A stretch of DNA of 61,884 nt, the filler included, from Dirinaria sp. TL-2023a (lineage: Eukaryota), in the NCBI GenBank assembly GCA_051941275.1. It is 2 parts of 2 records of this genome, joined end to end, with 100 filler letters (N's around TTAATTAATTAA, not from the genome) between each part and the next. Parts side by side here need not be neighbours in the genome. Positions count along the whole stretch, not along the records: positions 1 to 30,899 come from JAVEBF010000099.1; 1 more part is not named here. One strand, given 5' to 3'. Position 1 is the first letter of the stretch. Every line of letters begins with the position of its first letter. The translations under genes were made by a program, and so were the position numbers. The notes beneath the pieces are model-generated. The model did no database searches. It had not been told where the DNA came from and worked only from the letters and a program-made list of their open reading frames with translations. Shown here one piece after another: positions 3,293-58,329 of this stretch.

Positions 3293-4624
3293 ATGGCGCT
3301 CAATTTGATCACGCCAGATGTTCGGACATACGTTCCACCACACCCGCCACTGGAGGAGTTTATCCCTGATCCCGACCGCGCTCTTTTCGCCAATGGCTCC
3401 AAATCGACTTTGCTCGCGGCAGCTTCCGCTATCGAGGAAGTCACGCCGTATATAGGCACGGAGTTGAAAGGTATCCAGTTGAGCAAATTGTCGGATGCGC
3501 AAAAGGACGAGTTGGCGCTCTTAGTAGCTGAAGTACGTGGAGGAGGAAGTATCTTCGATGAGATGATTAATATTTGTAGAGGGGTGTCGTCTTTTTTCGA
3601 GATCAGGATATCACACTTGAGCAACAACACGAACTTGCTGCTTACTACGGCAAAGTAGGCCAACCTAAGCCCTCAATCATTTCACTTTCTAACTCTAAAT
3701 TCAGCAAGATAGAGATCCGAATCAGCAAGATCCAAGGCACGTCACAATAATTGGTCGTGATGGGTAGGACCTCGGAATGTGCTATTAGGAGCTCCGAGCG
3801 TTAATCATTCGAAGCAATATTCGCCAATATAACTATTATGGAGGCGAGTTCCACGCCGATCATTCTTTCGAGGTCAACCCACCCTCGTACACCCTTCTCC
3901 GCATGGTCAAAACTCCACCGAGCGGCGGGGATACCATATTCACTAGTCAGACAGCGCTTTTCGATAAGCTGAGCCCGGCGTTTCAAAAGGCTCTTGAGGG
4001 GCTTCATGCAGTTCACTCCGCTGATGTCAGTAGAAAACACAATCCTTAAAAGAACTATTACAGGTAATCGTACATGACTGACATTGGGTCTTAAGAGATC
4101 ATATGTTGCCTCGATAAATGGAGGCGGGCAGCCTCTTCGGGCGCCAGTTGGAACAAAGCATCCTTTGGTATGTACCAGGACTCGATTTCTCGTTAGGTTT
4201 TCAACGAGAGACATGTATTTAACCAATGTCTGCTAAGATCCGCACCCATCCCGTGACGGGTCTTAAGATCTTGAATTACAACCCGTCGTTCATCGACCGG
4301 ATCTACGAGCTCAATGGCCAGGAGTCATCCCACATCTTGGCCTTTCTCCGTGAACACCTCCTTCAAGCCCATGATCTTTCCGTGCGCTGGAAATGGACTC
4401 CAGGCGCTGTAGCATTTTGGGATAACAGATCTGTGGTCCACAAGGCTCTTCCCGGTGGATACGACATCACATTGAGAGAGGGGAAACGCACGGCGATATA
4501 CGGCGAGAGGCCCTTCTTTGATGCGGAAAAAAGTGAAAGTTTGACGCAGAGGCGGGAACGATTGAATGCTGGTAAGAAAGATACGGCCGCTCATCGATCG
4601 TCCGAGCCGGAATTGAATAACTGA
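3293..4624 (+). CDS. Alpha-ketoglutarate-dependent sulfonate/taurine dioxygenase (TauD/JLP1 family), multi-exon
   Basis: Spliced translation gives TPYIGTELKGIQL, AE|RGVVFFRDQD, FHADHSFE (HxD), GGDTIFTS, RTHPVTG, RWKWTPGAVAFWDNRSVVH and a C-terminal Arg. Confidence 0.93.
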
Positions 4625-6393: not shown

Positions 6394-7341
6394 TCAAACT
6401 CTAGTCTCTTGCTTACCTTCGAGACTGTGTTCGAACCAGTTCACCAGCTCCTTGCCGATCAGATGAGGATTGTCCTCTTGGAGGAAATGTTTTCCTGAGC
6501 CAATATGCACGTTCTTCGTATTGTGCAAAGTCTCAAGATAGAACCCGGCCAACTCCTCGCTAATGATAGCGCCTGGGTTAGCCCAGAAAAACAGCTTCGG
6601 GATATCATTCTCCAGCAGCCATGTATGGTTTTTCTCGACAATTGCATAGACCTCCGGCGGCTGCCCCTCAATCGGAGCCTCATTCGGCCAACGATAGATA
6701 GCTTCGCGATCTTCTGATTTGAGATAAGGGGCTCGATAGTAATTCATTTCCTTTTCTGTCAAGGTTCGTACTACACTTTCTGGCAAGAACTTCTCTACGA
6801 AAAAGTTCTCCTCGATGATGAGCTTGCGGCCTGAAGGCCCGCGAAACTCTTTGAACAAGCTGGGCTCACCACCCCTTTCGAGCAAAGCCCACTTTGGGAT
6901 GGGCGGGATAAATTCCAAGAATGCTAGACCAGCTACTTGGAGCGCATGGCGACGAGCCCAATGGAATCCGAGCGACGAACCCCAGCCCTCAACGACGAGA
7001 ATGATTTTCTGGTTTGCTGGCAGAATAACCTGAGCGATGAACTCATCGAGGTAGAGCGCATGTTCGACGAAGCGATACGACAGATGAGAAGGCTTGTCCG
7101 ACTGCCCCATGCCGATGAGATCAGGAGCAACACATCGTACTTCAGAAGAAACGTGAGGGATAATGTTGCGCCATACATAGGAAGACGTTGGGTTACCGTG
7201 TAGGAAGAGCATTGCTGGCGACTCGTGCCGATCCTGAACTGAACCTGTGGCTCCGGTGTCTATGTAGGCCATCTCGACATCATAGATTTTGGCGCGTTGA
7301 AGGGTAAAATGGAAGTCGGAAGAGATTTCTTGATCGCCCAT
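6394..7341 (-). CDS. Haloalkane dehalogenase-like alpha/beta hydrolase (HLD-II/DhaA-like), intronless; nucleophile Asp replaced by Gly
   Basis: FLHGNPTSSYVWRNIIPHV, APDLIGMGQSDKP, WGSSLGFHWA, LEF, GKHFLQEDNP, colinear with Rhodococcus DhaA; first ATG at 7341. Confidence 0.9.
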   Translation of the reverse strand: MGDQEISSDFHFTLQRAKIYDVEMAYIDTGATGSVQDRHESPAMLFLHGNPTSSYVWRNIIPHVSSEVRCVAPDLIGMGQSDKPSHLSYRFVEHALYLDEFIAQVILPANQKIILVVEGWGSSLGFHWARRHALQVAGLAFLEFIPPIPKWALLERGGEPSLFKEFRGPSGRKLIIEENFFVEKFLPESVVRTLTEKEMNYYRAPYLKSEDREAIYRWPNEAPIEGQPPEVYAIVEKNHTWLLENDIPKLFFWANPGAIISEELAGFYLETLHNTKNVHIGSGKHFLQEDNPHLIGKELVNWFEHSLEGKQETRV

Positions 7342-9701
7342 GTTCACCCAATGGATCGATTTCTAGAGTCTCGAAATGGTAAAAGGATGGATAGAAATTT
7401 CAGCCTGTTGTTCTCGCGCAGATAATGTCTTGGAAGCAGACAACCCGCGACGCCCGCTAGGGAAAGGACTGTAGGATCGAAGATGCAATTTTGGATACCA
7501 AAAGATTCAAAATGAGAATGTTCGAGCGGGATCAGATCAACAATACTCATTGTCTTATATAGACACGGGCACGTCTTCATCGTCGACTCTTCAGCTCATT
7601 TCGCTTGCATGACATCTGATCATTGTGAGGTTCAGTGCCAGCAACCCAGAGTAAGGATCAGCTCCTTGACGGGGCATTATCCGATGATGATCCAGCACCC
7701 GATACCCATTTTTAATTTATCTATAGGGATAATCTGTATGCATGACACAACACGATCCAGTGAGTGGAGCGTCAAGATTATCGATCGAGGATCGATTCGC
7801 TGTCAGCGATTCGTTCGGATTTCATTCGGACTTCTGAACGAGCACAACAATCCAGCGTCCTGGAGATGCCTAGAGCTTTCAAGGAGCAGTTGAAGACCGA
7901 TGACATTCTTTCCTATCACAAAGCAGGTATTTTGAGGATATCCAGAGCTCTACCGGCCAAGACAGCTGCCCCTCGAGTTCTTCGTCACAGCTTAATAAGC
8001 CATGTGTATATATTCGCATTTTGAAGGGTAGGAACAGTAGTAGGTGATGTAGACTCAAAAGTGCTGGTAGTTGAACGAAAAGAAACCGCCCCCTTCAGTG
8101 ATTCCTTAATCATGGCGCAATGCTAATTTCTTGAACCAATCAGCGCTCGAGGATGATTAGTTAGTCTAGCCGCTCTTAGTCCCACGAACAGGATCCGACA
8201 GCCCCTACCATTCGGATCAGCAGATTTTCTCATGTTTACTGTACTTCCGATGTCAGCTTATCTTTTCGAATCAGTAGATAGGCGAGGTTTACGTGAACGA
8301 CGAGAATTATATGTGGTTTGCTGCTCCAGGTAATGTGATAGTGGAATCAATGCTGTGTGATTCACCACAGACTCGTCACCAAGGTCGTACCGAGATTGAA
8401 GACCCTAAGCTAGATGACAAACTCGCTCTTCCAGCTGGACTGGAGTGTGGTCACAATATATTGTTCGTAAAAACGACGCACAGGGTGTCTTGGACTCATA
8501 TATTTGTCCTGACTTACGTCAGACGGAGGCGTTCGTCGGCAAAAGACAAGCCCAAGGCAATTTTTCTAAGGTAAACTTTCTAAGCTAGCAGGTCATAGGG
8601 TTCAGTGAGGGCTTAGCCGACCACTGAGGTGGTGCAGCCCTTAAGGTTCAGTACATTTGCTTTTCGGCATGTATTTACTTGGCTCTGGCATTTCGATTTC
8701 CCACCAACCCATGCGACATACATGCCACTCACAGTCTAGTATATGTCATGTAACATATACATTCACCGTGGCTCGCTCTGCATCATACCAGCGCCACAAT
8801 TGGTGATCTCGACTAGCTCTTCGACGTTGAGCCCATGACCTCCGATGTGCTTTTTCAAAGGCCTGCTTGGTCTTGGCTTGAGGCGATTCAAGATTATATC
8901 TAGAGGCGTACGCGTTAGGATTGCCACGAAATTCACTGTTCGAGGCCGCTATAGCTATCTTAAGCGCCGTGTATGGTTGGTGCCTTTGAAAAGGCGCCGC
9001 TACGCATCCTTGAAAACCAGCGTAGACCATTATCGAAAAAGTTTCACTTTGCCCTTGACATGGAAAAGGATCGAGAAAAGGTTTACCTTAAGACTAGACT
9101 TATAACGGCTCAGTATATACGCACTCTATATTCTGTAAAGTACACCCTTCAGTCTTGATGAAGGATACGACTACTTGAGCCTTCACATGCAAGGTATCGA
9201 CCTATCTTACCATGGTTCAAGAAAAAGTCGCTAGGATGAAGTTTGTACACAACAGCAACGTAGAAAGTCCAACGGAGACGTGCCACCGAGCATAGATCTC
9301 CGTCGAATCCCGGGGTAAATTGAACTACAAAATGCTATGATGATCAACTCGCCTTCAAGCCACGCCGATCACGAGTCACTTAAGGCTAGTTCAAGATCGA
9401 GGGACCTGTTCGCCCATTCCGTTACAACGCTCCCGTCCTCACAAACCCTAATTCTGTATTTCGCGGATAATGGATACCTTACTCAACGTAGCTCCCAGAT
9501 GTTAGACCTCAAAGGGGTAAATCGAGAATTCTGCAATGGGATGTGGATCTCGGGTTTTGAGATCTTCTAGATCGCTGCGGCTTGAGTTCTGATCGAGAGT
9601 CACAGAAAACAAAGGTATAGGTCGACGATTCAAATTTTCGGTGACTTCAAATGCTTTCAAGTCCAAAAAAGGCCCATGCAAAGTATCGTTAGCATTTCTT
9701 T

Positions 9702-9999
9702 CCTACACTCTGCTGTTTTTGCGATTATAGCCACCTTCCTAGTATAGTTTGCTTTCATAAAGTTCTTTGATTTTCTTTCATTATGCTTGCTGTTGGAAAA
9801 TGCCTAAGATCGATGACCCCTATGACCTCTCTAACGAATAAAAATCTATCATGGGCATGACCCAAAATTTACAGGCATCTAATGTTTGCCTCCATGCTTG
9901 CCAAAAGCAAGCATAATGAAAGAAATCAAAGAAATCTATGAAAGCAAACCATATTAGAAAGGTGGCCACAATTGCAAAAAACAACACTCGCTTTGTAGG
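9702..9999. repeat. Diverged inverted duplication (arms ~9711-9796 and ~9901-9986)
   Basis: Left arm TGCTGTTTTTGCGATTATAGCCACCTTCCTAGTATAGTTTGCTTTCATA... aligns to the reverse complement of the right arm TGTTGTTTTTTGCAATTGTGGCCACCTTTCTAATATGGTTTGCTTTCATA... Confidence 0.85.
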
Positions 10000-10144
10000 C
10001 AAACATGAGACGCGTATATGTATTGGGTCATGTCCATGATATATTTTCTTTCCTTATAGAGGTGATCAATATTAGACATTTTCCAACACATTCTTTATCG
10101 CTTACCTTGAACACTGTTATCTTTACCACTAACATTACATCTAC

Positions 10145-10791
10145 ATGGATCCTCAAAAATGTATCATCGTGATCATGGGGTACACTGGCAGCGGAAAAAC
10201 CACCCTAGCACGTTATCTATCCGAAAGGCTGCAAAGGCCCATGGTGGAAGGAGACGATGCAAACACACCCTAGCTCCCCGCCTAATATTGGTGGACGAGA
10301 AGCTGACATATCTTGAGCAGTCTCATACGGAAGCCGACAAAGCCCAAATGGCCAGCGGTACAGCCCTTACCGACAACGACCGCTGGGACTTCTTGACGAC
10401 GGTGCGAGAGAAGGCAGTGGAAGCGCTTCAACAAGACAATCATACATCGCCAGCGGTCTTTGTAGCCGTGTCTGTACAGGAGAAGAAGAAGTATAGAGAC
10501 GTCTTGCGAGTTGCGCGGCTGGAAGAAGAAGCCTTGAAGATGACGTTTGTGCATCTAAGGGTGGGGGAGGATGTGGTTATACAGCGGGTAATGGACAGGC
10601 AAGGGCATTTCATAAATAAAGATATGGTATGTAAGCAGATCAGGACTTCTGGGATCCCTGCCCCGCCGGTGGAGGAGGACGATGTCGTGATAATTAATGG
10701 CGAACCGACTATAAAGGTTATAACTGAGGAGGTGGTGGCCACACTGAAGGGCAGGGGAGGCTTGCCGAGAGGAGAAGTCGACAGTCCATGA
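10145..10791 (+). CDS. Gluconokinase (GntK/thermoresistant gluconokinase family); exons 10145-10258 and 10321-10791
   Basis: Exon 1 MDPQKCIIVIMGYTGSGKTT (P-loop)...EGDD; exon 2 SHTEADKAQMASGTALTDNDRWDFL, LKMTFVHL, RQGHF; joined by a 62-bp GC-AG intron with a GCTGAC branch site. Confidence 0.85.
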
Positions 10792-11163
10792 AAGGAAATG
10801 GTTTGATATACTCAGCTTGTTGGTCAGGCCTTATCATGACAGTTGTCAAGCTACTGCCTTTGTGCTCTCCTGGATCCGAGTGGTACCTGGAGGAACTGAT
10901 CCAAACAATGTTAAATCTCGGTTCCGAAGATCACTACTGCGGTAGACGAAGCTAAGACTTCTACAAAACCGATATCTTATTCCAAATCTTGCGAGAGACT
11001 CCTCGCAGATCATCTACGAAAATGAGAACTAACGAAAATCTCAAAGTGGTCATGCCATTGCGCAAGTCCGTTCATTGAACCTTTTCTGCTAAAAGCCTTT
11101 CATTTGTGTATGGTTATCTATTCGCTCAATCGAGCTTGTGGTTTCCGAGGTAGGATTTACACT

Positions 11164-11508
11164 CTATCTATCAGTCACACCCAAATCATCTAGGTCATCT
11201 GGATCTATGTCATCGGGGCATTGATCGACCCCCCAAAATTTTTTAAAGTTGCACCATTTACTTGCGCGTTTTGAAATCTTGGGAGTCCGTCGAGTCGATT
11301 GTGCAACGCCATTGCGCTTGTCTTCTTGATTGAGATGTGTAGTTTGAATGGGTGCTAGCAGTGTGCTCGATGTCGACGTGGTGAATAAAATTGTCGTCGA
11401 GGTCAGTGATGATACAGGGTACATTTCTTTGCTGATTGTGTAAGAGGGAGGAAGAGCCAGCGCCAGCGCTGATGCAAGGAGGAGTACGAAGAGAGGACGT
11501 GTCTGCAT
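11164..11508 (-). CDS. Small secreted protein with Kex2 (KR) sites, 114 aa
   Basis: N-terminal signal peptide (MQTRPLFVLLLASALALA), Ser/Thr-rich pro-region, KR/RR/KR dibasic sites, C-terminal 2-Cys peptide. Confidence 0.7.
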   Translation of the reverse strand: MQTRPLFVLLLASALALALPPSYTISKEMYPVSSLTSTTILFTTSTSSTLLAPIQTTHLNQEDKRNGVAQSTRRTPKISKRASKWCNFKKFWGVDQCPDDIDPDDLDDLGVTDR

Positions 11509-12149
11509 GTTGAATAGATCGGCGAGTACTAAGCGTTTCGATAGCGAAAGTCGTAGAGGTGCTCGATATTTCGATCTGGCAAATGTGCTTTGAAAGTAAG
11601 GCTTTTCTAAGGTCGGCAGGTGGCAGGAGAGATCGAGTACTTAATCAACATGACTCTCAAAGATAGCTGTTCAAATAAAGTATGGCAAACAAAGAAAGTC
11701 ATGATCTGCGCAGAGGCTGCTGCCTTTTAAGTATCTTTGTTCTTTGTTGAAACAAAGTCATTGTCCGGTTGATGTTCGAATACTGACTGTGTCGCACCCT
11801 TCTTTGAGTACACAATGAATTCAAGGTTTCAAGTATTGAAAGTTATGGAGTGCAGTGGATCTCGACTCTCATGCTATCTATTCCCAATATGACACTTTGG
11901 TAAGTGGAATTGTCTCGGCTTTTGAGACAAAGATGAAGAGTGTGATATTAGATTCAAAATTCCTTCGACACAGCCTCCAAGCCATCAAGATCAATCACGT
12001 CGCAAGATCAGTCGTGGAAGCCGCCAAAACGATGAGACTTTCTTGTGTTTCTAGTTAATATCAGAATTGAATAATGAGTCCTTTCTCGCAAGATGCTCTA
12101 GATCTTCATTCGGATTCACTCGTCACGCGGGTGGAACTTTCTCGATACG

Positions 12150-19267: not shown

Positions 19268-20269
19268 TTAGCGAGTCGTCTTCTCTTCAGTCTCTTGCTC
19301 GACGCTCGATTCAGGCCCCCCAGCTGCTGGCAAACGCCAAGCCGGATGGACGAGATTGAAGACTACTGCAGCAATGACCATGAGCGCTCCATCAAGCACA
19401 CAGAAGTAGACCTCGTGTGTGATCAAGTATCCCTTCCAGCCCTGTGACAACTCGATGGCGCGGTAAAAGTTCCTGATAATGATACAAGCTGCGGAAACAC
19501 TGGTTGTAACAAGCAGAAGCTGCGTCTTTGAATCCTTGGGAACAGCTCGAGCGCTCCAGATTACCCAGAGGAAGAGAATCGCGAAGACAGACATCGAGAC
19601 CAACTGGATGATGATTCCTGCCATCATTTCATGCGTTCCAGTCAGAGTGCTCTGCGGTGGTTCTGCCGCGCTGGCTTTGGAAGCGGTACCGCCACCCACT
19701 GCCTGGATAATTATAGAGAGGAGGTCGAAACTGGCGAAAATGATAAGGTACAGTCTGGGAGAAAGTGGGCTATATCGTGGGCCCCACAAGCGGATAAGCT
19801 GGCCAAGAACGTAGTATATGGCGGCGCTGAAGAAGCAAGGCGCTGTACTGCATTAGTGTTCTGGAGCTCGGATGCATGGGTTGGGAAGGTACCAATGATC
19901 AAGATAGATATCTGCATCTCGAACGCATTGTTACTGTACGGACACTTGGACGCCCAGAGTCTTGCAATCCAGCCCAGAAGCTCTCCTGCAGCATTGATTA
20001 GCGGCTAGTTCACAGCTTGTGTCCATTGAGATCATACCAAGAGCGCCGACTGCGAACAAGCTGTACCACCATTTACGCTTGACAACAGTTTGCACACAAT
20101 GGGTTAAGAATGTAATGAAGAAGACAACGACGAAAACAATGCCGGCTGCAGTGTTTGGTTTGTACCCATACGTTGGCAAGACTTGCCGGTCATAGGCGAC
20201 GCATCCCTGACCTCGGTCATGATGGCTGAGCTGGCTCGCCAGTGGTGTTCGTTTCAGAAGAGAGGCCAT
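19268..20269 (-). CDS. RTA1-family (Rsb1/Rta1) 7-TM lipid-translocating exporter/resistance protein, multi-exon
   Basis: YGYKPNTAAGIVF, ELLGWIARLW, PCFFSAAIYTF, DLLSIIIQAVGGG, IIRNFYRAIELSQGWKGYLITHEVYFCVLDG, HPAW. Confidence 0.93.
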
Positions 20270-21468: not shown

Positions 21469-23228
21469 ATGGTTGGGGTTGCTGGTAAATCTAAAGCCTG
21501 TAACACATGCCGGATTCGTAAAGTTAAGGTGTGACTCTGCGACTTGACTTCAAAGGCACTCTACTGATTCACATGTAGTGCGATCTACAAACGCCAGGAT
21601 GTGGCCAGTGCTTGAAGACTGGCAGACACTGCCCTGGCTATCGTCGAGCCACGGTCTTTCTGCACCAAGAGGATAACGATGTCTCCGGACATTCGTCTAG
21701 ATCCACAACTCCTACACCTGCGGATGTCGGCATGATGACGGCAGGCGACCGCCAGATTCGAAGAGCCACCAATATTCAATTCAAACGACAAGTACGCCCT
21801 GAAGTGCAAATGACAGCTCAGATCAACAACCGGCACATTTTCCGGGACCTGTTTGCTGCCGAGTTCCTTCGCATTTATCTGCCCACGTCGGAATTTTGCC
21901 CACAGACCCCGCTGACATGGCTTCAATTGGTTTTCAATGTGCCGACAGAGGGTACTGCGCTGGACTGCGCAATGGCCGCCGTGGCTTTATCTGTTGTAGG
22001 GCGTGCTGCAAACGATGCTGCTCTTTCTGTCGAAAGCTCGAGGAAGTACGGCCAAGCTTTATGGGCCCTTCAGAGGGCGCTTTGGGATGAACGACTAAGA
22101 TTTCAGGATGAGACCTTAGCGGCATGTACCGCACTCGTGCTCTACGAGGTCTGTTTCCATTCATGCTGGAAATGTTTTGGTTCTTTTCACTAACCTTCGG
22201 ATACTTGAAGCTTCTCGAATGTACCGAGGACAACTTGGAAGGTTGGGTCACTCATGCACAGGGCGTTGCTCGTCTTGTGGAGGCACGTGGGCCTAGTTCG
22301 TTCGATTCGCCTTTAGCACACATGATTTTCATGTCGTTTCGCAACACCGCTGTAAGATAGACCCCTGAGCCCCAAACGGAAGAGGCACACTAACATTGCC
22401 TTGCAGATGATCCAAGCATTGCAAGGCAGAAAAGCCTCAATGTTCACGCGGCCTGAGTGGCAAACCGAGCCCTGGAAAATTCACAGTAAAGGACCGGATC
22501 AGCAGCTCTTCGACATAGGCATAGAGCTCTCGGCCATCCTTGCGCGCGCCGACAAATCGAAATCGATTCAAGAAAGTAATGCCATTGCCCTAGAGAAGGT
22601 CGCACTTCTCAAAGATTGCGAGGACCTTGCGAAAAGGCTCGACACGTGGTTCCGACAATTCAATGAAGACATCCCCCCCCCTCACTACTGGCCAGAATTC
22701 TCCAACGTCGAGAGCCCGATCGACGTTCGTGAGGGTCGCAAGATATTCCCGGTCTCCTTTCGCTTTTCGAACATATATATCGCCAAGGTTCTGATCGACT
22801 ACTGGGGGATCTCCATTGTGCTGTACAGCACTTCTATCATCTTATATCGATCCCTCACTGCCGATAATAATAGAACTGGTCCCGAACACCCTGCAGACGA
22901 GCGTCGTGCACAAGCAAAGGCCATTCTGCCCCAGCACATTAGCGTCCCCAAGCCTGGTATAACTCAAAGGCCTGAAATGATCAAGTCCCTAGCCGACAAC
23001 ATCGCACAGTCGATGGAGTACTGTCTGCAAAAGGACGTGGGGACGCTTGGGCCACAATGGGCACTATTTGCTCTTCGTATAGCACTGCAGACTTACAAGT
23101 ATTTTCCCGATACAAACGAGCTTCTCTGGTTACAGGCGATACACGATAAAATCTGCGACGAGAAAGGTGTAAAGTTTAGCCGGATTATTGCTGCATCAAA
23201 TTGGGAAGCCAGGAGTTCAAGCCTGTGA
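21469..23228 (+). CDS. Zn(II)2Cys6 transcription factor with fungal-specific TF domain, multi-exon
   Basis: MVGVAGKSKACNTCRIRKVK|CDLQTPGCGQCLKTGRHCPGY binuclear cluster; YGQALWALQRAL, WVTHAQG, NIAQSMEYCL. Confidence 0.92.
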
Positions 23229-23409: not shown

Positions 23410-25764
23410 TCATTTAATCCAGTTCAAAAACTTCCGGAACCGGTTTCTGCTGGCGCTCGAACCACGCTTTTGGGTAAGACTATCTTCATCCGGCACATTT
23501 GTGGGAAACCAGACATCACTTAGATCGTTCAAACCCCGAAAACGAGTCTGATACATCCACTTGTAGAAGGCGAATATGCTGAAAAAGAGGGCCGGCTGAT
23601 TTTGCATCAGTTGACCGTCCAAATGTTCTATGGCTACAGTACTTACTCCTAGATATGCGGCAACGAGATCAACGATGGAGTCTCGTCTGTTGACGCCTTG
23701 CGACCTGGCTATCAAATCATAAATAGCAGACCAGCCGCTAAAGATCATCAGAAGACTACACAAGAGAAGTCCAAGGTATGCCCAGAGTGGTTGCCAATGG
23801 GCACGATAATGGTTCTGCCTGTACGAGGTTCCATTTCGATCCATGATTCTACAGTAGAAAGCCATCCTTTAAACCGTCAGCCATATCATGCGTGGTTTTG
23901 AAGGAACAGCGCCTTACGCTTTCTTGAATCTGAGGAATGCGACACATTCACTCCCATAAATGCAAAGCAATGGACCGGTGTATAATCGGCCAAAGACATG
24001 GATTGGCTAACGCTCGTGTCAGCTTTCATCATGTGCGTTCGTGAATGGGTTGACTGCGCGCACTTCTTGGAAATTAATGTCTGCTGACTTTACGGCCAGA
24101 AAGGCCAGCAAACCGGGAAGAAAGCTCGCGAATATAGCTGCTAGAGGTGTATGCCCATTATTTGTTCGACCAAGTGTTCGCCTAACGAACTCGTGCTGGC
24201 TTCGTTGCGCGAGAACGAAAAGTGTACGACTGGCGACATACAATGCCGAGTTCCTGGAACAATCAGCCTCAACACTCGTTCCAGAATGCAGATTCATGGC
24301 ACTAACGCGGCTGTCAATGCTGAAAATATGAAACACGCATCTAAGAAGCCTGGCAACCCCCCAATCCCGGCGTTCTCGATGGCAATAACAAATGGCGACC
24401 GAGATGCAGTCTGAATGCCCTTCAATCGGTCCTCCTGAAACCATGAGATATGGGAATGGTAGATCCTGGGATCTAGGTAATTGATGTTCAGTCCAAGGAG
24501 AATGATGGCGACAAGATAGGCCCCAACCGGTAACAGATACATATACCTCGCTGCAGTCGGCAGGTCTCGACGGGGCGCTTTGGCTTCACCTGCTGTCACC
24601 AGCACAATCTCTCCTCCCATGAATTGAAACATGGCTAGCGTAGTACAAGTCCTAAAGTCTATTTTTCAACGCGCGAACTTCGATTTGTGGGAAATACTAC
24701 GTACCATACAGCTAAGATGCGTCCACCAGTACCAGAAATGCCGACTCGACTTCCAGCCACGGACGACGTACTGGCATCAGAAAAGAAGCCCGTGGAATTG
24801 TAGCCGGGGCTGATTTCGAAATCTTAAACCGACCTTGTCAGCACTAGAAATAGGGTAATTTATCAGTGCATGACACACTTGAATCAACCTTGCCAGGGCC
24901 GGCTACTCTCTCTGTTAGCATTCTTGATTAGATGTACAGATCTGTAAGCTAACCTCCGGCTTTTATCACTACCATCAGCGCACAAAGTGCGACAAGCAGA
25001 AGTATCTTGAGCCACTTGAATACCCACTCCATGTTTCCGTAAAGCTAGAAGCGGTCAACGCTCAGTCCGGGCATGTGGCGGCGCTGCTCTCCAATTACCT
25101 GCACGCCACAAGCATTCATGAAGAAGATCGCAAGCAATAGCACGAAGACGGCTGATGTCATACTGAAGCCCGGACCCCAGTATTGAGTGAACATGGCAGC
25201 TGCGATAGTCAAAGTCACGATACTCATGCAGTTCGCAAGCCTAGACATAAAATTAAAATGGATCGCGGATAGAGCGGTAGCACCTCACCAATACATAACA
25301 CCAACGGCGAAGCCGAGCCCTTCATCAATGAAGGTGTGGGGAAAGTCCATTAAAGGACCTTTGACTGGTCGTACGGACACCATCTCCGCAAGACACCGCA
25401 TGACCGAGAAGACGACCAGACCAGCAAATATATAGGCGAGCAGGGCGCCAACTGGACCCCCTAGAGCAATGATCTCTCCAGAAGTTTGGTAGATGCCAAT
25501 ACCGACGGCTGCGGAGAAAGCGATTCCTTTCGAGTGGTTAGTACAGAATGTCAATGACGACCACGAAATAGGTTTACCGGTAATATGGTGTCGCTCAAGC
25601 TTGCGGTCCAAGCAATCTTTCTTGAAAAGTTGGTCACTGAGCGTGTCTGCCAGCCTGCGACCCAATGTATTTCCATGAGCTGGGGCATCGTGAGAGGACT
25701 CGAGGTCAGTATCAACGTCTACTTGGACTTGTGGGAAGATTTTTGAGGGTCGTCTTGGTCCCAT
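23410..25764 (-). CDS. Amino-acid permease (APC/YAT family), divergent, multi-exon
   Basis: RKLERHHIT|GIAFSAAVGIG, GPVGALLAY, LAEMVSVRP, GFAVGVMYW, GEAKAPRRDLP, SPFVIA, NSALYVASRTLFVLA, WQPLWAYLGL. Confidence 0.9.
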
Positions 25765-26230
25765 TTTCGCGTGACCGGATATCTTGCCTTATAGCCACGC
25801 CATTTTACTACCACTATTAAAGGAGCGGGATTCAAGGCGGGTTTTATCTTGTCGCTCACCTCACTTTGTGACGAGGCTGAGGATGTACGTGGAGCATGAG
25901 CCACCACCATAGATATATTGCCAAGCCTGAGCTAAGAGCGCCCTGCATGGTGTTAGTCTTCTCAGCCTTCTACGACCCAATAGCAGCGACGACCGCTCGC
26001 AAGACTTTTCCTGATCTCGTGTATCTTGCACTGCCACTAGCTACATCGAGCCATTCCAGTCAGCCTATCGACTTTCCAGGTTGACGCCTGATTTTGGCAG
26101 CTCCAAGGTATTGGTTGGCACCCTGAGCCTTCCTCCCAGTCTCTACATAATCCCGCCTTGAAGACAGTTGTGTGGGCAGAGACCATCGGCCATCTTCTTC
26201 ATATGTCAGTTTTACAGCTGCAGAGCCAAG

Positions 26231-29043
26231 ATGGCGGCGTCTTTGCGGTCGCTGATTCTGAATCTTGAAAGTTCCGGGCATCCTACAAATCGGGAATTAC
26301 GTGAGCTGCACAAAATTCTCAACCGCGAGTGCTTGCATCATTCCGGCAGCGAGGAGCTCCTTGGTAACGCCGGCGATTACACGCCTGATGACGTTTCGCG
26401 TCTGGCCCTGAACTTGTCAAAACCCTTGGCTCAAGCCGAGAACTGGCAAAGTTCCGAATATCGTATTCAGCAACTAAGGGTCCTCGTAGCAGCCCTCGCT
26501 CTCCTACATCATTTAAGGGTTCAGCAGCTTCATCCCGAACCCTACAGCCAATTGCGCCAGAGAATCGCGGATCGCTTTAAAGATATTGTGTACGGCCACC
26601 AACAGTCTCTTGAGACGGCCGCCTACCGTATTCAGTATATCCAGGCTCTTTATTATTGCCGGCTTGCCGGACAATATTTCTCACTTTTCAAGCGTCGGCA
26701 ACCGCCGGCAGAAGCACTTGCCGTCCCTGTGCTCGGATTAGTGCTTGCCGGAGCATCTATTGTGAGAAAGACATGCTTGAATGTAAGCGCGTTAGTCGCA
26801 TAGGCTGATTCTTTGTAGGCGGGTGGCCAATACAACAGCCTGCAGAGCGTTTTCAAATACCTTGATCAAATCATCGCAGAAATTCCCAACCCGCGGGGAA
26901 AGGACGTCACACTACCAACACTCCAAGAGATTGTTCGCAACACGGTCACCACATCCCAGAACGATAGGGATGCTTGTGTCCCCGATGAAGCTTCAAGGCT
27001 TCTACACAGCGTCTTCGAGACTCGTGCGGACAACACCTCGGTATCTGCCAACGAGCGCTGGGATCGAGTGTCAACCATCATAGGGAGAGTACCTCAGCTT
27101 AATAAATGGTTCTTCGTGTACGGTAGCTTTGAATGTGCTACCCAACTGAGCCAAGCGATTGGTCCCGCCCCCTTAAAGCCAGATCTATGTAAGATCATTC
27201 AGCGGCTAGCCTTTGAGTCGCCAGACGAGCATTTCAGGTGGAAATCAGTCAGTCACAGAACAGAGGATGCTGACTTTCGACGCCCGATGCTAATGTAGCG
27301 TGCAGATCGAATTCTTCCTGAGCCATCGAGCCACACGACATCAGCAACGCGATCGCCTCGAAGACGAAGCTACTCGTTACTCTGCCGCTGATCAAGTGAA
27401 AATCAAATCAGAGATCAAAGCAGTATATGCCGCACTGGAGGAGAATGAGCCAGCCGAAGCTGACGAGTCTTCAACAAGCCGCTCCTCATCCCTAGGTACG
27501 TAGTCCTACCCCATCTCAATCATCGTAGCGTTAGCGAAGGATCAGATTTGAAATATCAGGCATTCAAAATGTCTGCTGGTTTCCTAAAGCGTACTTTGAG
27601 CTTTTTCGTTGCCTTCGGAGAAGCTGTTGCTTGACCTTCGGCTTTGTCTAAGCAAGGGAGGTAGAAAAGCAGCGGCTGACTCAGAAATGTAGGCTTATCC
27701 AACGCCACGACTGGCACAAGCGAGAGTCTGTCGGCTCCGCATCACATTCATAGTGATGCATACAAGGAAACCCAAGTCCAGTCCATGGAGCCGCGGTGCC
27801 AACCCTTAATTCAGATACCGCGAGAGAAAAACCAATCCAGAGCCGGGCTCTCGAAAAGCTGTAGATTCATCTACTTTCACGATACTCAAAAGGTTGTGGT
27901 ACATCGGCTTTGTATCACCTCCCCATCAGGCAACAACAGCCTGAGAGGACCATCTGAAAAGCACTTCAGCCACGGCGTAACAAAAGGCCAGATGATTCAG
28001 CGAGTGGCAATAGACGGCCATTGGATCGCAATTAGTACTAACAAGGAACTTGTAATCATCAATATGGAAGACAAATCAATGACTCCCAGGCGAGCTCACG
28101 GCGATTGGGAGCCAGTTGGCCTGGCTTTGCACAAATCTGATACCAAAATTTCAGTAGTTCTCGGTCAGTGCAAGCGAGGACGCAACTGTTGGGAGGGTCG
28201 TGTCCTATTATTCAAGGTCTGGCTATCAGTACCCCTCGGCTCTGTTATGCTGGAACCCAGTCTGCATAGTATGCCACAGGGGGATAAACCCATGAACGTA
28301 GATATCAGCTCAGATGGTACTCTCTTCCTGTGCCTCACTCGATTACATAACAGTGTAATCATCTGGAAGCTGCTTCCGGAGCCCAGCGAGGACCAAGCTC
28401 CCTTTATTATCTCTCGGAGCTACACACCGGTGAGCATCCATTCAACTTGCACCTCAAGTACCACAACTCTAAAACAAATGCATCACAGGAAACGGGCATC
28501 TACGGAATCACATCTGCGTCAATCTACACATCAGGTAAAAGTGCCCGATACCTTGTCTGCACCACTTTCGCTTCGACAGAGCGCTGGCTCAATGGTGGGG
28601 AGTGGCCTTTTTGCTCGCCTATCGTTTTCCCGCCCACAAAATGGCGTTCAGACACTGTACACAACCTCGAGAGTCTCAAAGATAAAAGAAGCATAGTGGC
28701 AGCAGCCGTCTCATCCCAAGCGAACGTTCTGGCTGTCCTGGAACTGAATGGCAGGATATCAGTGCTAAACCTCAAAGCTCACGAGAGAGAGGGAATGTGT
28801 GTTTCGGACGAGGAGCCGACTACTCTCGAGGTTAAATTAAGCAATCAGACAGCGGAATCGCAAATCTGTCCTAGCGCTCTACAGTTCGATCCTTCGGGCA
28901 CAAAGCTTTTTGCGCTTGGTGTGGATGGCAAGCTCGTTGTTGTGGACTTCGTCGATCCTCGAAATGTATTGGCTCCGTGGTCACCATCCAGCAGCAATTC
29001 ATCAAAAACGCGTTTACCGTTATTGCGCCGTTTTCGCTCGTGA
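26231..29043 (+). CDS. Multi-exon protein with helical N-terminus and C-terminal WD40-like beta-propeller (Ptr3-like)
   Basis: Six ORF segments joined by GT-AG introns; blade-like segments VAIDGHWIAIST, NVDISSDGTLFLCLT...VIIWKL, AAAVSSQANVLAVLELNGRISVL, ALQFDPSGTKLFALGVDGKLVVVDF. Confidence 0.75.
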
Positions 29044-30899
29044 AAGGGGAAAGAGGGCTAAGAATCCTTGTGCTCCCTAGTGGTTTCTAAAGACGATTTA
29101 CCGTCGATCTATAGCTTCACACGTCATCAGACGGAACGTCATTTATCTCGACCGATCTCTCTACAGCGCAGAGACTACCTGACACCTCCGCAGAGACACT
29201 CCTGTCACGGACTACTGTCTGGGCGAGTATATTCCAGTATAGCTCCAGTCTTCGTTGGATGGACCTTTCGAGTGTCTTCACGAAAGGCTTACTCTCCGGC
29301 ACGTCGTTCCCTGATTTCGACGCGATGATACTCTCTGCAAGTATCGTATGCACTTATCTCCATCAAGAACGAACATACTGGCAGAGGTACGCTGTTCCAC
29401 CCATGTTAAGAGCACGACACCACGGCATATCTTCAAAAGCATTGCCGTTGGATCCTGATAACAGAGATGGCAATATCGAGACACCACTCCACTTTCACCG
29501 CAGCAGAATTTCCAAGAAACACCAGCAAAAATATCTCTGTTTACCATGCAAACGCCTTACGACGTCTTCGCGCGCTGATGATTTGTTTCAAAGCGATGGA
29601 ACCAGCGCATGCAATTGTTCAAGGGCCTTCCTGTAGCACTGGCCATTTCAAGACCAATATCATTCACCGATGCCAATCATTGTACAAGATGCAATGTTAG
29701 GAGCACAGCACTAATCCGGTTTCGATGTAACTTGAGCTCCAGAAGCCCGGCTATTACACTGAGCTTTTCCAGCATCCAGCGCATTAGTAGCAAGGATTAC
29801 GCTGCAGGGACGGCAAGCCAACTCAATCGCTGCTTGCTCCCAAATAAGAATGGGCACAATGAAAGCATTGTGCTTCTGAATAGCAGTAGGGAGACCTTCG
29901 CCTTCTGCAAGGCATTCTCTATCTTGAATAGAAACCGCACTCTGCCAGCGCTTTAGTAGCGCCAATCATCAGTGGCTCAAGGAAGACCTGTAGACCAATT
30001 AGCTCGTCTTCAATCGGACTATTATTGCATCTTGCTAACAAGCAAGACCCATGGATCAAGCGCACAGACAGCACGCCTATCACTAGCCCTATCGTCTTTG
30101 CGGCGACTTTACCTGTGGCTGAGGTCCAGACCGTGAAGATTTTGATCTCCTGCATCATCTGGCTCGAGCTAGACAGAGAACGGTTTAGATACTTTCCCTT
30201 CCCCACAATCGAAGATCTGCCGAGACGATCTCCCGTCACGAGTGCCAAGTCGAAGAGTTGAGGCTAAGGAAGCATGCACCTTCTCGGGCCTTTTACGTAA
30301 ACGAGATGGTTCTTCGCGACGTTCGTCCGAGAAGAACCGTTGTTTTCCGGGGAACTAATAATGATAGTGTCAAGTAAGTACCTTAGTTGGGCGTTTATTC
30401 TAGGTAACTTGGCGAACGTTGGACATGAGAAGGTACTATTCTTACGTTCATTTAGCCTACAATGAAAAGAAAGGAGAGGAGAGAGAGACAACTGACGATT
30501 TCCAAAAAGGCTGCTCATTCTTTCGCTATGCCCATAGAGAATGGAAGTCTGCGCGCACACAATCAACAGACTACGTATATCTCTTTCCGAAGAACTGCTG
30601 GCATAGATCCATGTCTAGCTACTTAGCTTGCGACCTTCAACAATAGTTAGCTACTTTCTTCTCGCCACCACAAGAAAACATACTATTTTCTCGTGTTATC
30701 AAGATAAAGCCATCTAATCTTGCATCTAGGTGCATAATGCAGCCCTAGGTACTAAACCAAGTCACCAAAACAATACCTAGCACATATGAACCAATGGAAA
30801 TAGCCCTTCCTTTGAGTGAGGCATTTATCAAGCCACCACTGGTGGCAGCGCTGCTTGGCGGGCATGATGACCTCGTCACTAGACGCCCTAAGTCGCTCT

Positions 30900-30999
30900 N
30901 NNNNNNNNNNNNNNNNNNNNNNNNNNNNNNNNNNNNNNNNNNNTTAATTAATTAANNNNNNNNNNNNNNNNNNNNNNNNNNNNNNNNNNNNNNNNNNNN
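30900..30999. other. Scaffold gap with artificial six-frame-stop spacer (N44-TTAATTAATTAA-N44)
   Basis: Exactly 100 bp, symmetric Ns around TTAATTAATTAA (30944-30955). Confidence 0.95.
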
Positions 31000-54398: not shown

Positions 54399-57300
54399 AT
54401 GTCTATCTTCAACGTCAAACATTCCAAGATTGAGGAAGACACATCACACCAGAAAATCTCCTCCTATTTTCTTGGCCCTCGGGCAGAGAACTTTGAGTAT
54501 CTGAGGTCCAATATCCTGACAATTCTCGAAGAGCAAAGGGACACTAGACTTGATTACTTTCCTGACGATGGCGTGAGTATATCATTCTTGTCAAATGTTC
54601 GCAGTCATTATTTTCAATGATAACTCTGGCCGCACGAGGAGGTTGGACCATCCTAGTTATCTTTACTCGGGCCGATGCCCAAATGGGAATCAGCAGAAGA
54701 AAAGTTTAATCTGAAGCTTTCTGCCCTAGGATTTCATATCAACCTCAATACAAAGGTCCACGACTTTTCGGCGCTCCGCCAAAAAGATCGCGCATGCAGT
54801 CAGAGACGCGGCCCACCTACTGGGAAAGCATTCCATACCATTCTGGTCCCCTCGATACCAAGGGCATATGTGCATGGACTTGTCAATGCCTGCCATTTGC
54901 GGCTATTTCATGACGATGCTCTTCAATCCCAACAACGTGTGTGTATAAGTATAACATATCAATTCACTAGGTATACCTAGTAACTCGTTACTCTTAGGAC
55001 CATTGAAGCGAGTCCGATGACTACTGTGGCGGAGATGGAAGTTGGTGATCAACTATGTAATCTCTTCGGCTTTAACGTCAATCCCAACGTGACGGACCAG
55101 CCAACCGGATGGGGCCATATAACGTGCGATGGCTCAGTTGCAAATCTCGAGTCTGTTTGGGTCGGTACGTGTTGCCGTGTTTCAAAGGTCTCACTTGTGT
55201 AGCTGATTTGGAAATGCTATTCAGCACGTAACCTCAAGTTCTATCCGCTATCCATCTTCTCAGCAATGAAGGAGAGTGGGCCGTTAGCCTTCGCTGCTGG
55301 GACGTTCAAGATGAAGGTCTGCGTTGGTGAAGAAAAACTCTTTACCGAGTTTTCCACTTGGGAGCTCCTCAACATTAAAGCCAAAGACATCTTAGACATC
55401 CCTCAAAGACTGTATGATCAGTACCATATCTCCCAGAAGTTTCTCGAAGCTGTCGTGCAGGAGTATGGGATCCAGTCCACATCGAAGGAAGCCCTAGAAA
55501 AAGAGTTCAACCTTGGACCGATGCGCTATTACTTGGCCAACTCTAGGCACTATTCGTGGCCGAAAGCAGGTGGTAAGTAATAGAGTTCTCAGGATGGTGT
55601 AATCACTCATCGAATCTTCATTTATAGCCGTTACCGGTATTGGTTCGGACAATATGGTTGGAATCCAACTCGACCACGGCGCGAGGATCGATTTGGAAGA
55701 TTTGAGAGTTCATCTACAAGAAAGCCTAGACAAGAAGCAAGCAGTTTATGCTGTTGTCGCGATTGTTGGCTCAACAGAAGAAGGCTCTGTGGATCCATTG
55801 GCAGACATTATCAAGCTACGTGACGAGTTCCAAGCCAAGGGGCTGTCATTTTTGGTCCATGCAGACGCGGCTTGGGGAGGGTAATACGCCTCATAGAACA
55901 AAATTCCACAAACGGTTTCTTCGTGGCTGATTTCTGAATTAGATATTTTTGTACCATGTTGCCCAGAGATTTCAGGCCGGGTGACCTTATTCCGTTGCCT
56001 AGCGAGCAAGAATCAGGCGACGGCTTTGTGCCAGATGCATCTCTGCGAGGTGTGTCGGATGCTCACTGATTGCGATACTTTGACTGATGCTGCGCTAGCA
56101 AAAACCACCGAGGATTTGTTCATGATTAGGCAAGCAGATTCGGTTACCATTGATCCACATAAAGCGGCTTATGTCCCGTACCCTGCTGGTGCACTTTGTT
56201 ACCGCGATGGTCGAATGAGGTTCTTAGTTACCTGGACTAGTCCATATCTCGCTCGTGGCGCTACGACGGCGACTAGCATTGGTATATTCGGGATTGAAGG
56301 AAGGTAAGTAGAGTTTTCCTTAACTGTGCGAATGCGTTTTCTGTCTGTCAAGTGTCATCGAAGCAAGTACACAAAAACATTCGACGACTTGGCTATACTG
56401 CGTTACTGGGCATGGCCTTGGTTACGTCCGAGAACCGCTGTGTTGCAATCTACGGTGGGCCTCCAATCAAAGTAGCTGACTCCTTATGCGACAATATAGC
56501 AAGCCGGGGGCTTCCGTGATGTCTACCTGGTTTAATCACGCGGCAATAGGGTTGAATTCTGAAGGGTATGGTAAGTTGCTAGGTGAGGTGACGTGGACCT
56601 GCAGCAGGGTAGGAGCCACTCAGTTATCCTTTGAAAAGTTTTTGTACTGATACGGATTTTTGCGTAGCTCTCAGCTGAATGGGCTGCAATGTCTACCAAA
56701 GACGATAGTTTCACAGTCGTTCCTTTGAATATGCTTCCGTCGGAGCTGAAGGAAGACTCCACGCCTGAAGATGTGGAGAAGGAGCGACAAAAGATCCGGG
56801 ACCGTATTCTGACAAAGTCAAACGAAGAAATAGTCAAAGCCGATTCCACAAGACCCGATGATGATAAGACAATGGCCTTGTTGCGAGCTCTTGGCTCTGA
56901 CCTCAACATCAATGCCTTCTCTATCAACTGGCGCTACCGCGATGGCACTCTTAATGACGAAGTAGAGGAAGCGAACTATTTTGTCCAGCGTGTCATAGAG
57001 AGGCTGTCGATCGACTCGCCCGAGGATGATCCGACCAGCATTCCCTTCTTTTTGACTTCCACCACATTCTTGCTACATGAATACGGTCAATGTGCCCAGA
57101 ACTTCAAGAAACGGCTGGGATTGGTCCAAGATCAATCGGATCTCATGTGCCTGAGGAATGTAGTAATGTCGCCATGGGCTACGGATAGAGACTTTATCAG
57201 TAGTCTCGCTAATGAATTTAAGAAAGTCATGGTCGAAGAAGTCGAGGTAAGAGACTTTCGCCGTGAAGTTTTGCAGCGGCTTCATATCTTGCTGAAACTA

Positions 57301-58329
57301 GCTTGATTCATCCATTTTTGGGAAGAAATCTCTGTTTTTCAACCTACTAGAGAACTAAGATATTTGCATACATTTTACAGAGCTTTCTGTTGACAAGATC
57401 TAGGTTTGTCGAGAACGAAACGATATTAGCAACGACTACCATAAATTTCTTATCCAAGGGGCCAAATCAACGTACTTAATCCATTTCCCCATGTTTCACT
57501 TGGCGAGACATCGGTCGCAGTTCATTGTGAAAGTCGACATCGGTTCGGATGGTTTGAAGTCATACCAAGATGCAAAGTCTAGGAACCCTTCCGCGACATT
57601 CATCTTGACGACTCGAGCTAAAGAGAACCTTGGAGATTTAGCTACCAAGAAGAAGACCTTCAAAGCCGATATCGAGATCCAGAATAGCTCGAAGAAGATG
57701 TAAATTCTCTCAATATCGTTAGTTTTGTTAATTATCTAATTGTCACACATAGAATCGAGACCATCAAGGACATCTCGGTAACAATAACGTCAGTTCTTAA
57801 AGATCGTTCTTTGAAGGCCCGTTATTTTGACACCGCATACCCATCCGGCAAGATGCCTTTCTACCTATACGGCTCTCAGGAGGAACTGAATATCGACCAC
57901 ATCCTCGTCCGCAGCCCAAATATACAGCTTTCCGCTAACATCAAGCTCGAATCCGGTACTACTGTTTCTGAGCAAGTCCTTGCTAAAGGTGCTATTCTCT
58001 TGGCCGAGGGTATAGAGGAAGCAGCTATGCAGCCTTTCCCTGCCACAGAAGACAACAGCCTAGCCCATGAACCGGATTTCTTCTTCCGACCAGGGCAGAA
58101 GTTTCCGGTCCAGATCTTCGAAGATAAGAAGGCTGCTGATGCGACAGGGCCAGGATTGGCCGACATGGCTCATACGGAGGTGTTGGCCTCTGGGACTATG
58201 ACTTTGGGCCAAGACGTGTATGTGGACGCATACGCGTTGAATGAGGATCCGTTCGAAAGGGTAGAAGGGGACGAGAAGTTCAAGAAGTGGAAGCGAGTCT
58301 TCGATCGCATTGAGCAACAACTGCAGTAA
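54399..58329 (+). CDS. Group II PLP-dependent decarboxylase (bacterial TyrDC-like / fungal ncAAAD-like) with C-terminal extra domain, multi-exon
   Basis: FLGPRAENF, PFWSPRYQGHM, NPNNV, GWGHITCDGSVANLES, GSTEEG, HADAAWGG|Y, SVTIDPHK (PLP Lys), GIEG|SKPGA. Confidence 0.92.

Follow-up and report, generated by a model that had tools for sequence, protein, structure and literature searches.

The window analysed here, a 61,884-nucleotide stretch of the Dirinaria sp. TL-2023a assembly (GCA_051941275.1), contains an amino-acid permease gene lying head to head with a gene for a protein made of helical repeats and a WD40-type propeller, hereafter called the scaffold. Dirinaria is a lichen-forming fungus of the order Caliciales, class Lecanoromycetes (lineage checked). 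The permease gene occupies positions 23410-25764 on the minus strand (11 exons, 609 amino acids) and the scaffold gene positions 26231-29043 on the plus strand (five exons, 813 amino acids). Their divergent start codons are separated by a spacer of 466 bp (25765-26230), presumed to be a shared bidirectional promoter. Runs of N at 30900-30943 and 30956-30999, directly after base 30899, identify the stretch as two contigs placed end to end. Only bases 1-30899 are linked to the gene pair, and for genes past position 31000, on the second contig, linkage to the pair is not established. The original prediction for this DNA had placed the two genes at these coordinates, with about 470 bp between the ATGs at 25764 and 26231, and had read them as a possible cassette of the type of the yeast Ssy1-Ptr3-Ssy5 (SPS) amino-acid sensor. 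The positions and the spacing were borne out; the SPS interpretation is weighed below. To our knowledge, the yeast SPS genes are unlinked and have been described from budding yeasts only.

The permease reading frame starts with the ATG at 25764 on the minus strand and ends with a stop codon at 23410. Its exons span 25764-25578, 25526-25289, 25240-25099, 25044-24954, 24902-24879, 24822-24705, 24651-24307, 24253-24064, 24006-23918, 23866-23647 and 23595-23410. Splice-site testing of the minus strand showed that the ten intervening introns measure 48-57 nucleotides and are all bounded by GT..AG. The deduced protein aligns without gaps, over all 609 residues, with a 609-residue permease from another sample (P0157), the two being 85% identical. 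The model was also compared with a public lichen metatranscriptome run kept as contigs, which contained 6% of the sampled words. All ten introns are skipped exactly by joints in these RNA contigs (CT..AC ends on the plus strand). Thus, the permease mRNA of a close relative is made and spliced as modelled.

Exon pieces of the window permease matched the Pfam family PF00324. Four orthologues (P0157, P0163, P0172 and P0200) matched it over its full length with 245-259 bits (257 for P0157), the cutoff being 24.6. In all four, the top NCBIfam model was TIGR00913 (2A0310, the yeast-type permease subfamily), with 277-290 bits (287 for P0157). None reached the curated cutoff of this model (578.7 bits), the scores being about half that value; this makes the permease a divergent relative rather than a typical member of the subfamily. 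The sole solved relative found was the lysine-specific permease LysP (chain 9eyd_A, E 2.5e-39). Alignment to this chain showed the F.F.G.E motif of transmembrane segment 6 (TM6) to be retained, while in TM1 the GGSIGTG of LysP is aligned to SGAVGIG, GTG thus becoming GIG. The string VGIG is invariant across 21 aligned permease orthologues; the orthologue on a metagenome contig described below (L001) has GVG. The PF00324 core begins at residue 60 of 609 in P0157, with which the window permease is colinear from residue 1. The N-terminal tail is therefore short (about 60 residues), as it is in the L001 orthologue. Judged by its sequence, the protein belongs, as a divergent member, to the yeast-type (YAT/AAT) APC permeases; its core of 12 transmembrane segments is normal, its cytoplasmic tails are short, and the G-I/V-G of TM1 is unusual. 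In its length, its short tails, its full PF00324 match and its TM6 motif it resembles Gap1-type transceptors and the bacterial LysP (9eyd). It differs from transporting YAT/AAT permeases by the halved TIGR00913 score, by G-I-G or G-V-G instead of G-T-G in TM1, and by adjoining a scaffold gene in every case traced.

The scaffold gene runs from an ATG at 26231 to a TGA ending at 29043. Its five exons (26231-26761, 26819-27247, 27306-27495, 27693-28429 and 28489-29043) are separated by introns of 57, 58, 197 and 59 nucleotides, all GT..AG. The best database match, a hypothetical protein deposited for Dirinaria sp. TL-2023a (Q9191_001294; P0001), is 100% identical to the product of this model, 744 residues long and recorded on a contig of 30,899 bases. 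Its annotation takes 27041-27305 as a single intron and drops the 69 residues encoded by 27041-27247. The dropped segment holds the string YGSFECATQL, which resembles the family motif GLLDC..QL, and the string RWK. It is conserved: tblastn matched it in L001 and in a second metagenome locus (L006), and GLLDC..QL and RWK recur in other members of the family. Since the segment is conserved in relatives, the 813-residue model is to be preferred, and on this comparison of sequences the real intron is 27248-27305. In the RNA run, a single contig of 191 nucleotides fell on the scaffold gene, at 28064-28254 in exon 4; the stretches left uncovered are no evidence of silence. A separate ENA entry of 470 residues (P0002), 68% identical to the scaffold, has the counterpart of intron 4 (28430-28488) translated as coding sequence and lacks the N-terminal domain; it is probably a truncated gene model.

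The predicted protein falls into three parts. An N-terminal all-helical repeat (alpha-solenoid) domain corresponds to residues 1-367 (26231-27446, plus strand, including the introns 26762-26818 and 27248-27305). It is followed by an acidic, Ser/Thr-rich disordered linker at about residues 368-413 (27447-27781, plus strand, including the intron 27496-27692) and by a C-terminal seven-bladed WD40-type beta-propeller at residues 414-786 (27782-28959, plus strand, including the intron 28430-28488). This division derives from an AlphaFold2 model of P0001 built on an 80-sequence alignment, whose mean predicted local distance difference test (pLDDT) over the whole model was 82.7. The model has helices up to residue 298, pLDDT below 50 at residues 303-329, a short linker helix at 335-338 and 28 strands between 347 and 715, which make up seven four-stranded blades. 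The propeller, a high-confidence prediction, covers residues 345-717 of P0001, equivalent to 414-786 in the 813-residue model. Consensus motifs of the family lie in blades 5-7 (G.TS.., CTT.PS.ER...GEW.F.SP, AGAVSS..NV.A.LE..G and LRF.P.G..L.A.D..GK). The four propeller peptides quoted in the original prediction are all present in the translation and fall within the predicted propeller. The Ptr3 strings set beside them there are not used as evidence; the most promising of these, LRF.P.G..L...D..G, is likewise compatible with the pattern of WD40 blades in general.

With VIA-align, the propeller matched those of Apaf-1, Cdc20, Ski8, G-beta, WDR91 and others, all tied at Z 24-25 (root-mean-square deviation 3.1-3.5 A over about 290-317 aligned residues, 8-12% identity). 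The family hidden Markov model searched against the PDB returned Pwp2 and other generic WD40 chains (E about 1e-8), with no Ptr3 chain among the matches. In structure the propeller is thus tied with numerous WD40 proteins of generic type. For the N-terminal domain, a model was made of a natural relative consisting of this domain only (P0021; mean pLDDT 80.2, 15 helices). No clear structural relative was found for it: its top Foldseek match was to designed armadillo proteins (E 0.042), and its best VIA-align Z of 11.2 lies under the tool's noise level for helical repeats, about 13. The earlier description of a helical N-terminal domain of no evident kinship joined to a WD40-type propeller is therefore upheld by AlphaFold2, VIA-align and Foldseek alike. 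Foldseek searches with the whole model placed Raptor (of TORC1) and Vps15 (of the PI3K complex) on top (E about 1e-9); in both, an alpha-solenoid precedes a seven-bladed WD40 propeller. TM-scores of 0.16-0.32, root-mean-square deviations near 30 A and 9-11% identity restrict the likeness to architecture, and the scaffold has neither the caspase-like domain nor the kinase domain that set Raptor and Vps15 apart from it. No Pfam cutoff was passed by scaffold pieces from the window or by 44 family members, of which at most five share a weak match to a generic propeller family.

When 1.84 billion cluster representatives were searched exhaustively with HMMER, 203 scaffold relatives emerged at E<=1e-3; 123 of these reached E<=1e-10, and 39 reached E<=1e-30. 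Proteins of 600-900 residues that cover both the N-terminal and the C-terminal parts are numerous among them. By these alignments the scaffold family is real and broad, and it is without a Pfam model. The 26 members with named sources come mostly from Lecanoromycetes, the others from Geoglossomycetes (Trichoglossum, Geoglossum), Dothideomycetes (Lepidopterella), Eurotiomycetes (Pyrenula) and Xylobotryomycetes (Cirrosporium); lineage was checked for six of the named taxa and the other taxa were placed by name only. Carriers of the scaffold are thus found in several classes of Pezizomycotina, chiefly among lichen fungi. A word-indexed search with a 14-sequence family alignment returned five proteins of the family together with a single generic WD40 protein and missed the remaining sequences of that alignment. 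In the ESM Atlas, generic WD40/propeller clusters and unnamed clusters were listed, with no Ptr3-named cluster among them. Open-access literature on Ptr3 or SPS in filamentous and lichen fungi, and on divergent permease/WD40 genes, yielded no description of the pair or of the scaffold family. Two species carry two distinct members each, in different clades of the tree: Xylographa soralifera (P0075 and P0031; the paralogues MMC17_003459 and MMC17_002537) and Trichoglossum hirsutum (P0030 and P0050).

The association of the two genes was then considered across genomes. With one permease exon as query, 62 orthologues were found (53-92% identical to the exon), many of them bearing locus tags. In all five other assemblies where both genes could be traced, scaffold and permease are at most two tags apart: Wetmoreana (scaffold Q9181_000863, permease Q9181_000861), cf. 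Caloplaca sp. 3 (Q9219_003689 and Q9219_003688), Squamulea (Q9209_006114 and Q9209_006112), Heterodermia aff. obscurata (Q9195_001197 and Q9195_001199) and Ikaeria (Q9222_002990 and Q9222_002991). Adjacency was read here from the locus tags, and both proteins of every pair are recorded on equally long contigs. Where the gap is of two tags it fits split gene models, because the proteins listed there are partial. In the case of Lecanora, Bacidia, Psora, Xylographa, Lepidopterella, Cirrosporium, Trichoglossum, Geoglossum, Pyrenula and further scaffold carriers, the 62 orthologues included none from the assembly concerned; these cases are uninformative and do not count as negatives.

A metagenome scan with a small family alignment yielded six loci. 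Five of these (L002-L006) are fragments of 1.2-2.3 kb, uninformative on neighbours; L001 alone includes flanking sequence. On L001 the two genes again lie head to head, the permease at about 8580-6313 (minus strand) and the scaffold at 9096-11766 (plus strand), with a spacer of about 516-588 bp. The L001 permease gave five exon matches to the window, with 50-57% identity in three and 39% and 33% in the other two. This exon identity, together with the TM1 peculiarity, places it in the same subfamily and distinguishes it from just any permease. The L001 propeller protein is about 30% identical to the window scaffold, 94% identical to P0052 and 35-38% identical to members from Piccolia, Sarcosagium, Geoglossum and Xylographa. 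In a quick maximum-likelihood tree (46 rows, trimmed to the final 420 residues of each, fragments excluded, the careful search unfinished), the midpoint root separates L001 from the clade of Caliciales and Teloschistales to which the window belongs. Beyond the pair itself, no window open reading frame of at least 70 amino acids had a match on L001. Thus, the head-to-head order and a spacer of about 0.5 kb have persisted in lineages whose scaffolds are about 30% identical and whose flanks differ. A physically linked, conserved pair is supported in this way, both by the five tagged assemblies and by L001. At its 5' end the L001 permease gene has a 72-bp tandem duplication (8508-8580, minus strand), which repeats 24 residues including the putative start codon; translation could start at 8580 or at 8508, both in frame.

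Divergent gene pairs that stay conserved are not common in fungi, and as a rule they reflect shared regulation and shared function. On these grounds the pair is taken to be a functional module. We favour, though the balance of our judgement is an even one, the view that the permease, divergent as it is, and the scaffold, acting as its dedicated cytosolic adaptor, make up a conserved, divergently transcribed module in lichen-forming and allied Pezizomycotina. The module is likened to a transporter-adaptor pair by analogy, membership in the Ssy1 and Ptr3 families not being established. The spacer would act as a bidirectional promoter from which permease and scaffold are co-expressed, and the scaffold would dock on the cytoplasmic face of the permease, its propeller and solenoid possibly serving as platforms for kinases or for the ubiquitin machinery. 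The scaffold might then either relay substrate occupancy by transceptor-type signalling, on the principle by which Ptr3 works with Ssy1, or govern how the permease is turned over. A complex prediction for the cf. Caloplaca sp. 3 permease (P0172) with residues 500-864 of P0004 gave a score of 0.00 in both runs, which were made with the propeller only and with neither alignments nor controls. If the scaffold is a dedicated adaptor, the pair would join the yeast SPS sensor as a nutrient module of a second kind that combines a transporter with a WD40 protein. Amino-acid sensing at the plasma membrane of filamentous and lichen-forming fungi is essentially uncharted, and the pair offers a testable handle both on the origin of Ptr3 and Ssy1 and on the handling of nitrogen compounds in lichen thalli.

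Several points weigh against a module of this kind. Binding of the two proteins and co-regulation of their genes are inferred, and the RNA contigs can neither rank expression nor show co-regulation. GATA, Gcn4-type, CGG-N-CCG, CCAAT and TATA patterns were not enriched above the contig's own density in the two spacers compared, those of the window and of L001. Of the seven genomes that have the pair, six are from the Caliciales and Teloschistales; these orders being related, plain synteny could explain the adjacency there, and the deep case is a single contig, L001. Non-adjacent cases may also occur among the scaffold-bearing species whose permease was not traced.

The alternative that survives best is that the two genes are co-regulated neighbours whose products are not physically coupled: they would share a promoter because both are needed in one and the same situation, such as nitrogen exchange in the thallus, and the scaffold would take part in another process. 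The conserved head-to-head order over a spacer of 0.47-0.59 kb is accounted for equally by such an arrangement, and WD40 and solenoid domains are generic interaction platforms with many possible partners. Against it, the pair has been kept down to about 30% protein identity while all other neighbours changed, which goes beyond most co-expressed fungal neighbours. We consider this explanation unlikely, while according it real weight; were promoter sharing all that unites the genes, the locus would be an ordinary co-regulated neighbourhood.

The other alternatives that involve sensing depend on how closely the two proteins resemble those of the SPS sensor. In PMC12958826, Ptr3 is described as having an N-terminal domain of about 100 residues with clustered conserved cysteines (C57, C59, C80 and C83), followed by a disordered region and a seven-bladed WD40-like propeller. 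In PMC3639058, the disordered region is reported to contain the LFA amphipathic helix that binds Ssy5, and Ptr3 to be a substrate of casein kinase I. The scaffold shares with Ptr3 a C-terminal seven-bladed propeller (about 375-415 residues; seven blades of four strands) placed after a disordered, Ser/Thr-rich and probably phosphorylatable region, and both are associated with a homologue of YAT-type permeases, the association being, for the scaffold, the conserved gene adjacency. These likenesses speak for an SPS-type sensor; the propeller fold, for its part, is common to hundreds of unrelated proteins. A lead of another sort is the source name of one family member, P0056 from Cirrosporium novae-zelandiae, "SPS-sensor component ptr3". 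This name is presumably an automatic transfer and is a lead rather than a test: all the other named members, 25 out of 26, are "hypothetical" or "uncharacterized", and four of these, with locus tags of the same style as P0056 (M18xx), are called "hypothetical".

Other features differ from those of the yeast proteins. The N-terminus of the scaffold is an alpha-solenoid of about 370 residues, where Ptr3 has its small domain, and the four-cysteine pattern (C.C.{15,30}C..C) occurs in none of 156 scaffold-family proteins, so that the cysteine cluster expected of a Ptr3 is not a feature of the family. Among the Pfam matches of the 44 members examined there was no Ptr3-specific family. The permease has the APC/LeuT-fold core of 12 transmembrane segments and the yeast-type family affiliation in common with Ssy1. 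It has about 60 residues before TM1 in a total of 609, however, whereas residues 1-282 of Ssy1 form a cytoplasmic N-terminal domain, the conserved boxes of which are docking sites for Ptr3, Ssy5 and Yck (PMC12958826). This speaks against the permease being a receptor of the Ssy1 type. As for a loss of transport activity, the one hint in the sequence is the change of G-T-G to G-I/V-G in TM1, beside a retained TM6 motif. Peptidase_S64 was absent from all window open reading frames scanned (108 in one scan, and others in further scans), in agreement with the initial report of no Ssy5-like protease in the window. In Aspergillus nidulans, homologues of Ssy1, Ptr3 and Stp1 could not be identified, according to PMC4557415. 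Thus, of the SPS-type cassette originally proposed, the linked and conserved pair and the combination of helical domain and propeller are supported; the permease lacks the N-terminal domain of Ssy1, the scaffold family lacks the cysteine cluster of Ptr3, and the propeller resembles generic WD40 folds.

In the light of these comparisons, we regard as distinctly improbable the idea that the scaffold family represents Ptr3 in the Pezizomycotina, as its counterpart or as an early form that has survived, kept head to head with a cognate permease of transceptor type. If it were true, the budding-yeast SPS sensor would descend from an older module of permease and adaptor whose genes have stayed linked in lichen fungi; amino acids supplied within the symbiosis would be sensed by the permease, and the scaffold would signal through phosphorylation of its Ser/Thr-rich linker. 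A little harder still to credit is a meaningless adjacency, in which residual synteny among related lichen fungi would combine with one coincidence, the scaffold being an unrelated, lineage-restricted WD40 protein. The concentration of six cases in two orders and the solitary position of L001 would be expected on this account; the subfamily membership of the L001 permease, the preservation of orientation and spacer length, and the lack of any further gene common to the window contig and L001 all argue against it. Least probable of all is a true SPS-type sensor, with the scaffold as a Ptr3 orthologue or early-diverging homologue and the permease as an Ssy1-like, non-transporting receptor, the two together switching on a protease of the Ssy5 type and, with it, a latent transcription factor, given the differences in N-terminal domains, cysteines and annotation set out above and the lack of an S64 protease among the window reading frames scanned.

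Other genes were noted in the window besides the pair. Tail to tail with the permease gene lies a gene encoding a fungal-specific transcription factor domain (PF11951, E 1.3e-5) at 21579-23228 on the plus strand; it ends about 180 bp from the permease stop codon and has no counterpart on L001. Farther away on the same contig are a TauD-type dioxygenase (4223-4621, plus strand), an alpha/beta hydrolase (6397-7362, minus strand) and an RTA1-like membrane protein (19271-19852, minus strand). The second contig carries a gene for a pyridoxal phosphate-dependent, tyrosine-decarboxylase-like decarboxylase at 55603-57303 on the plus strand.

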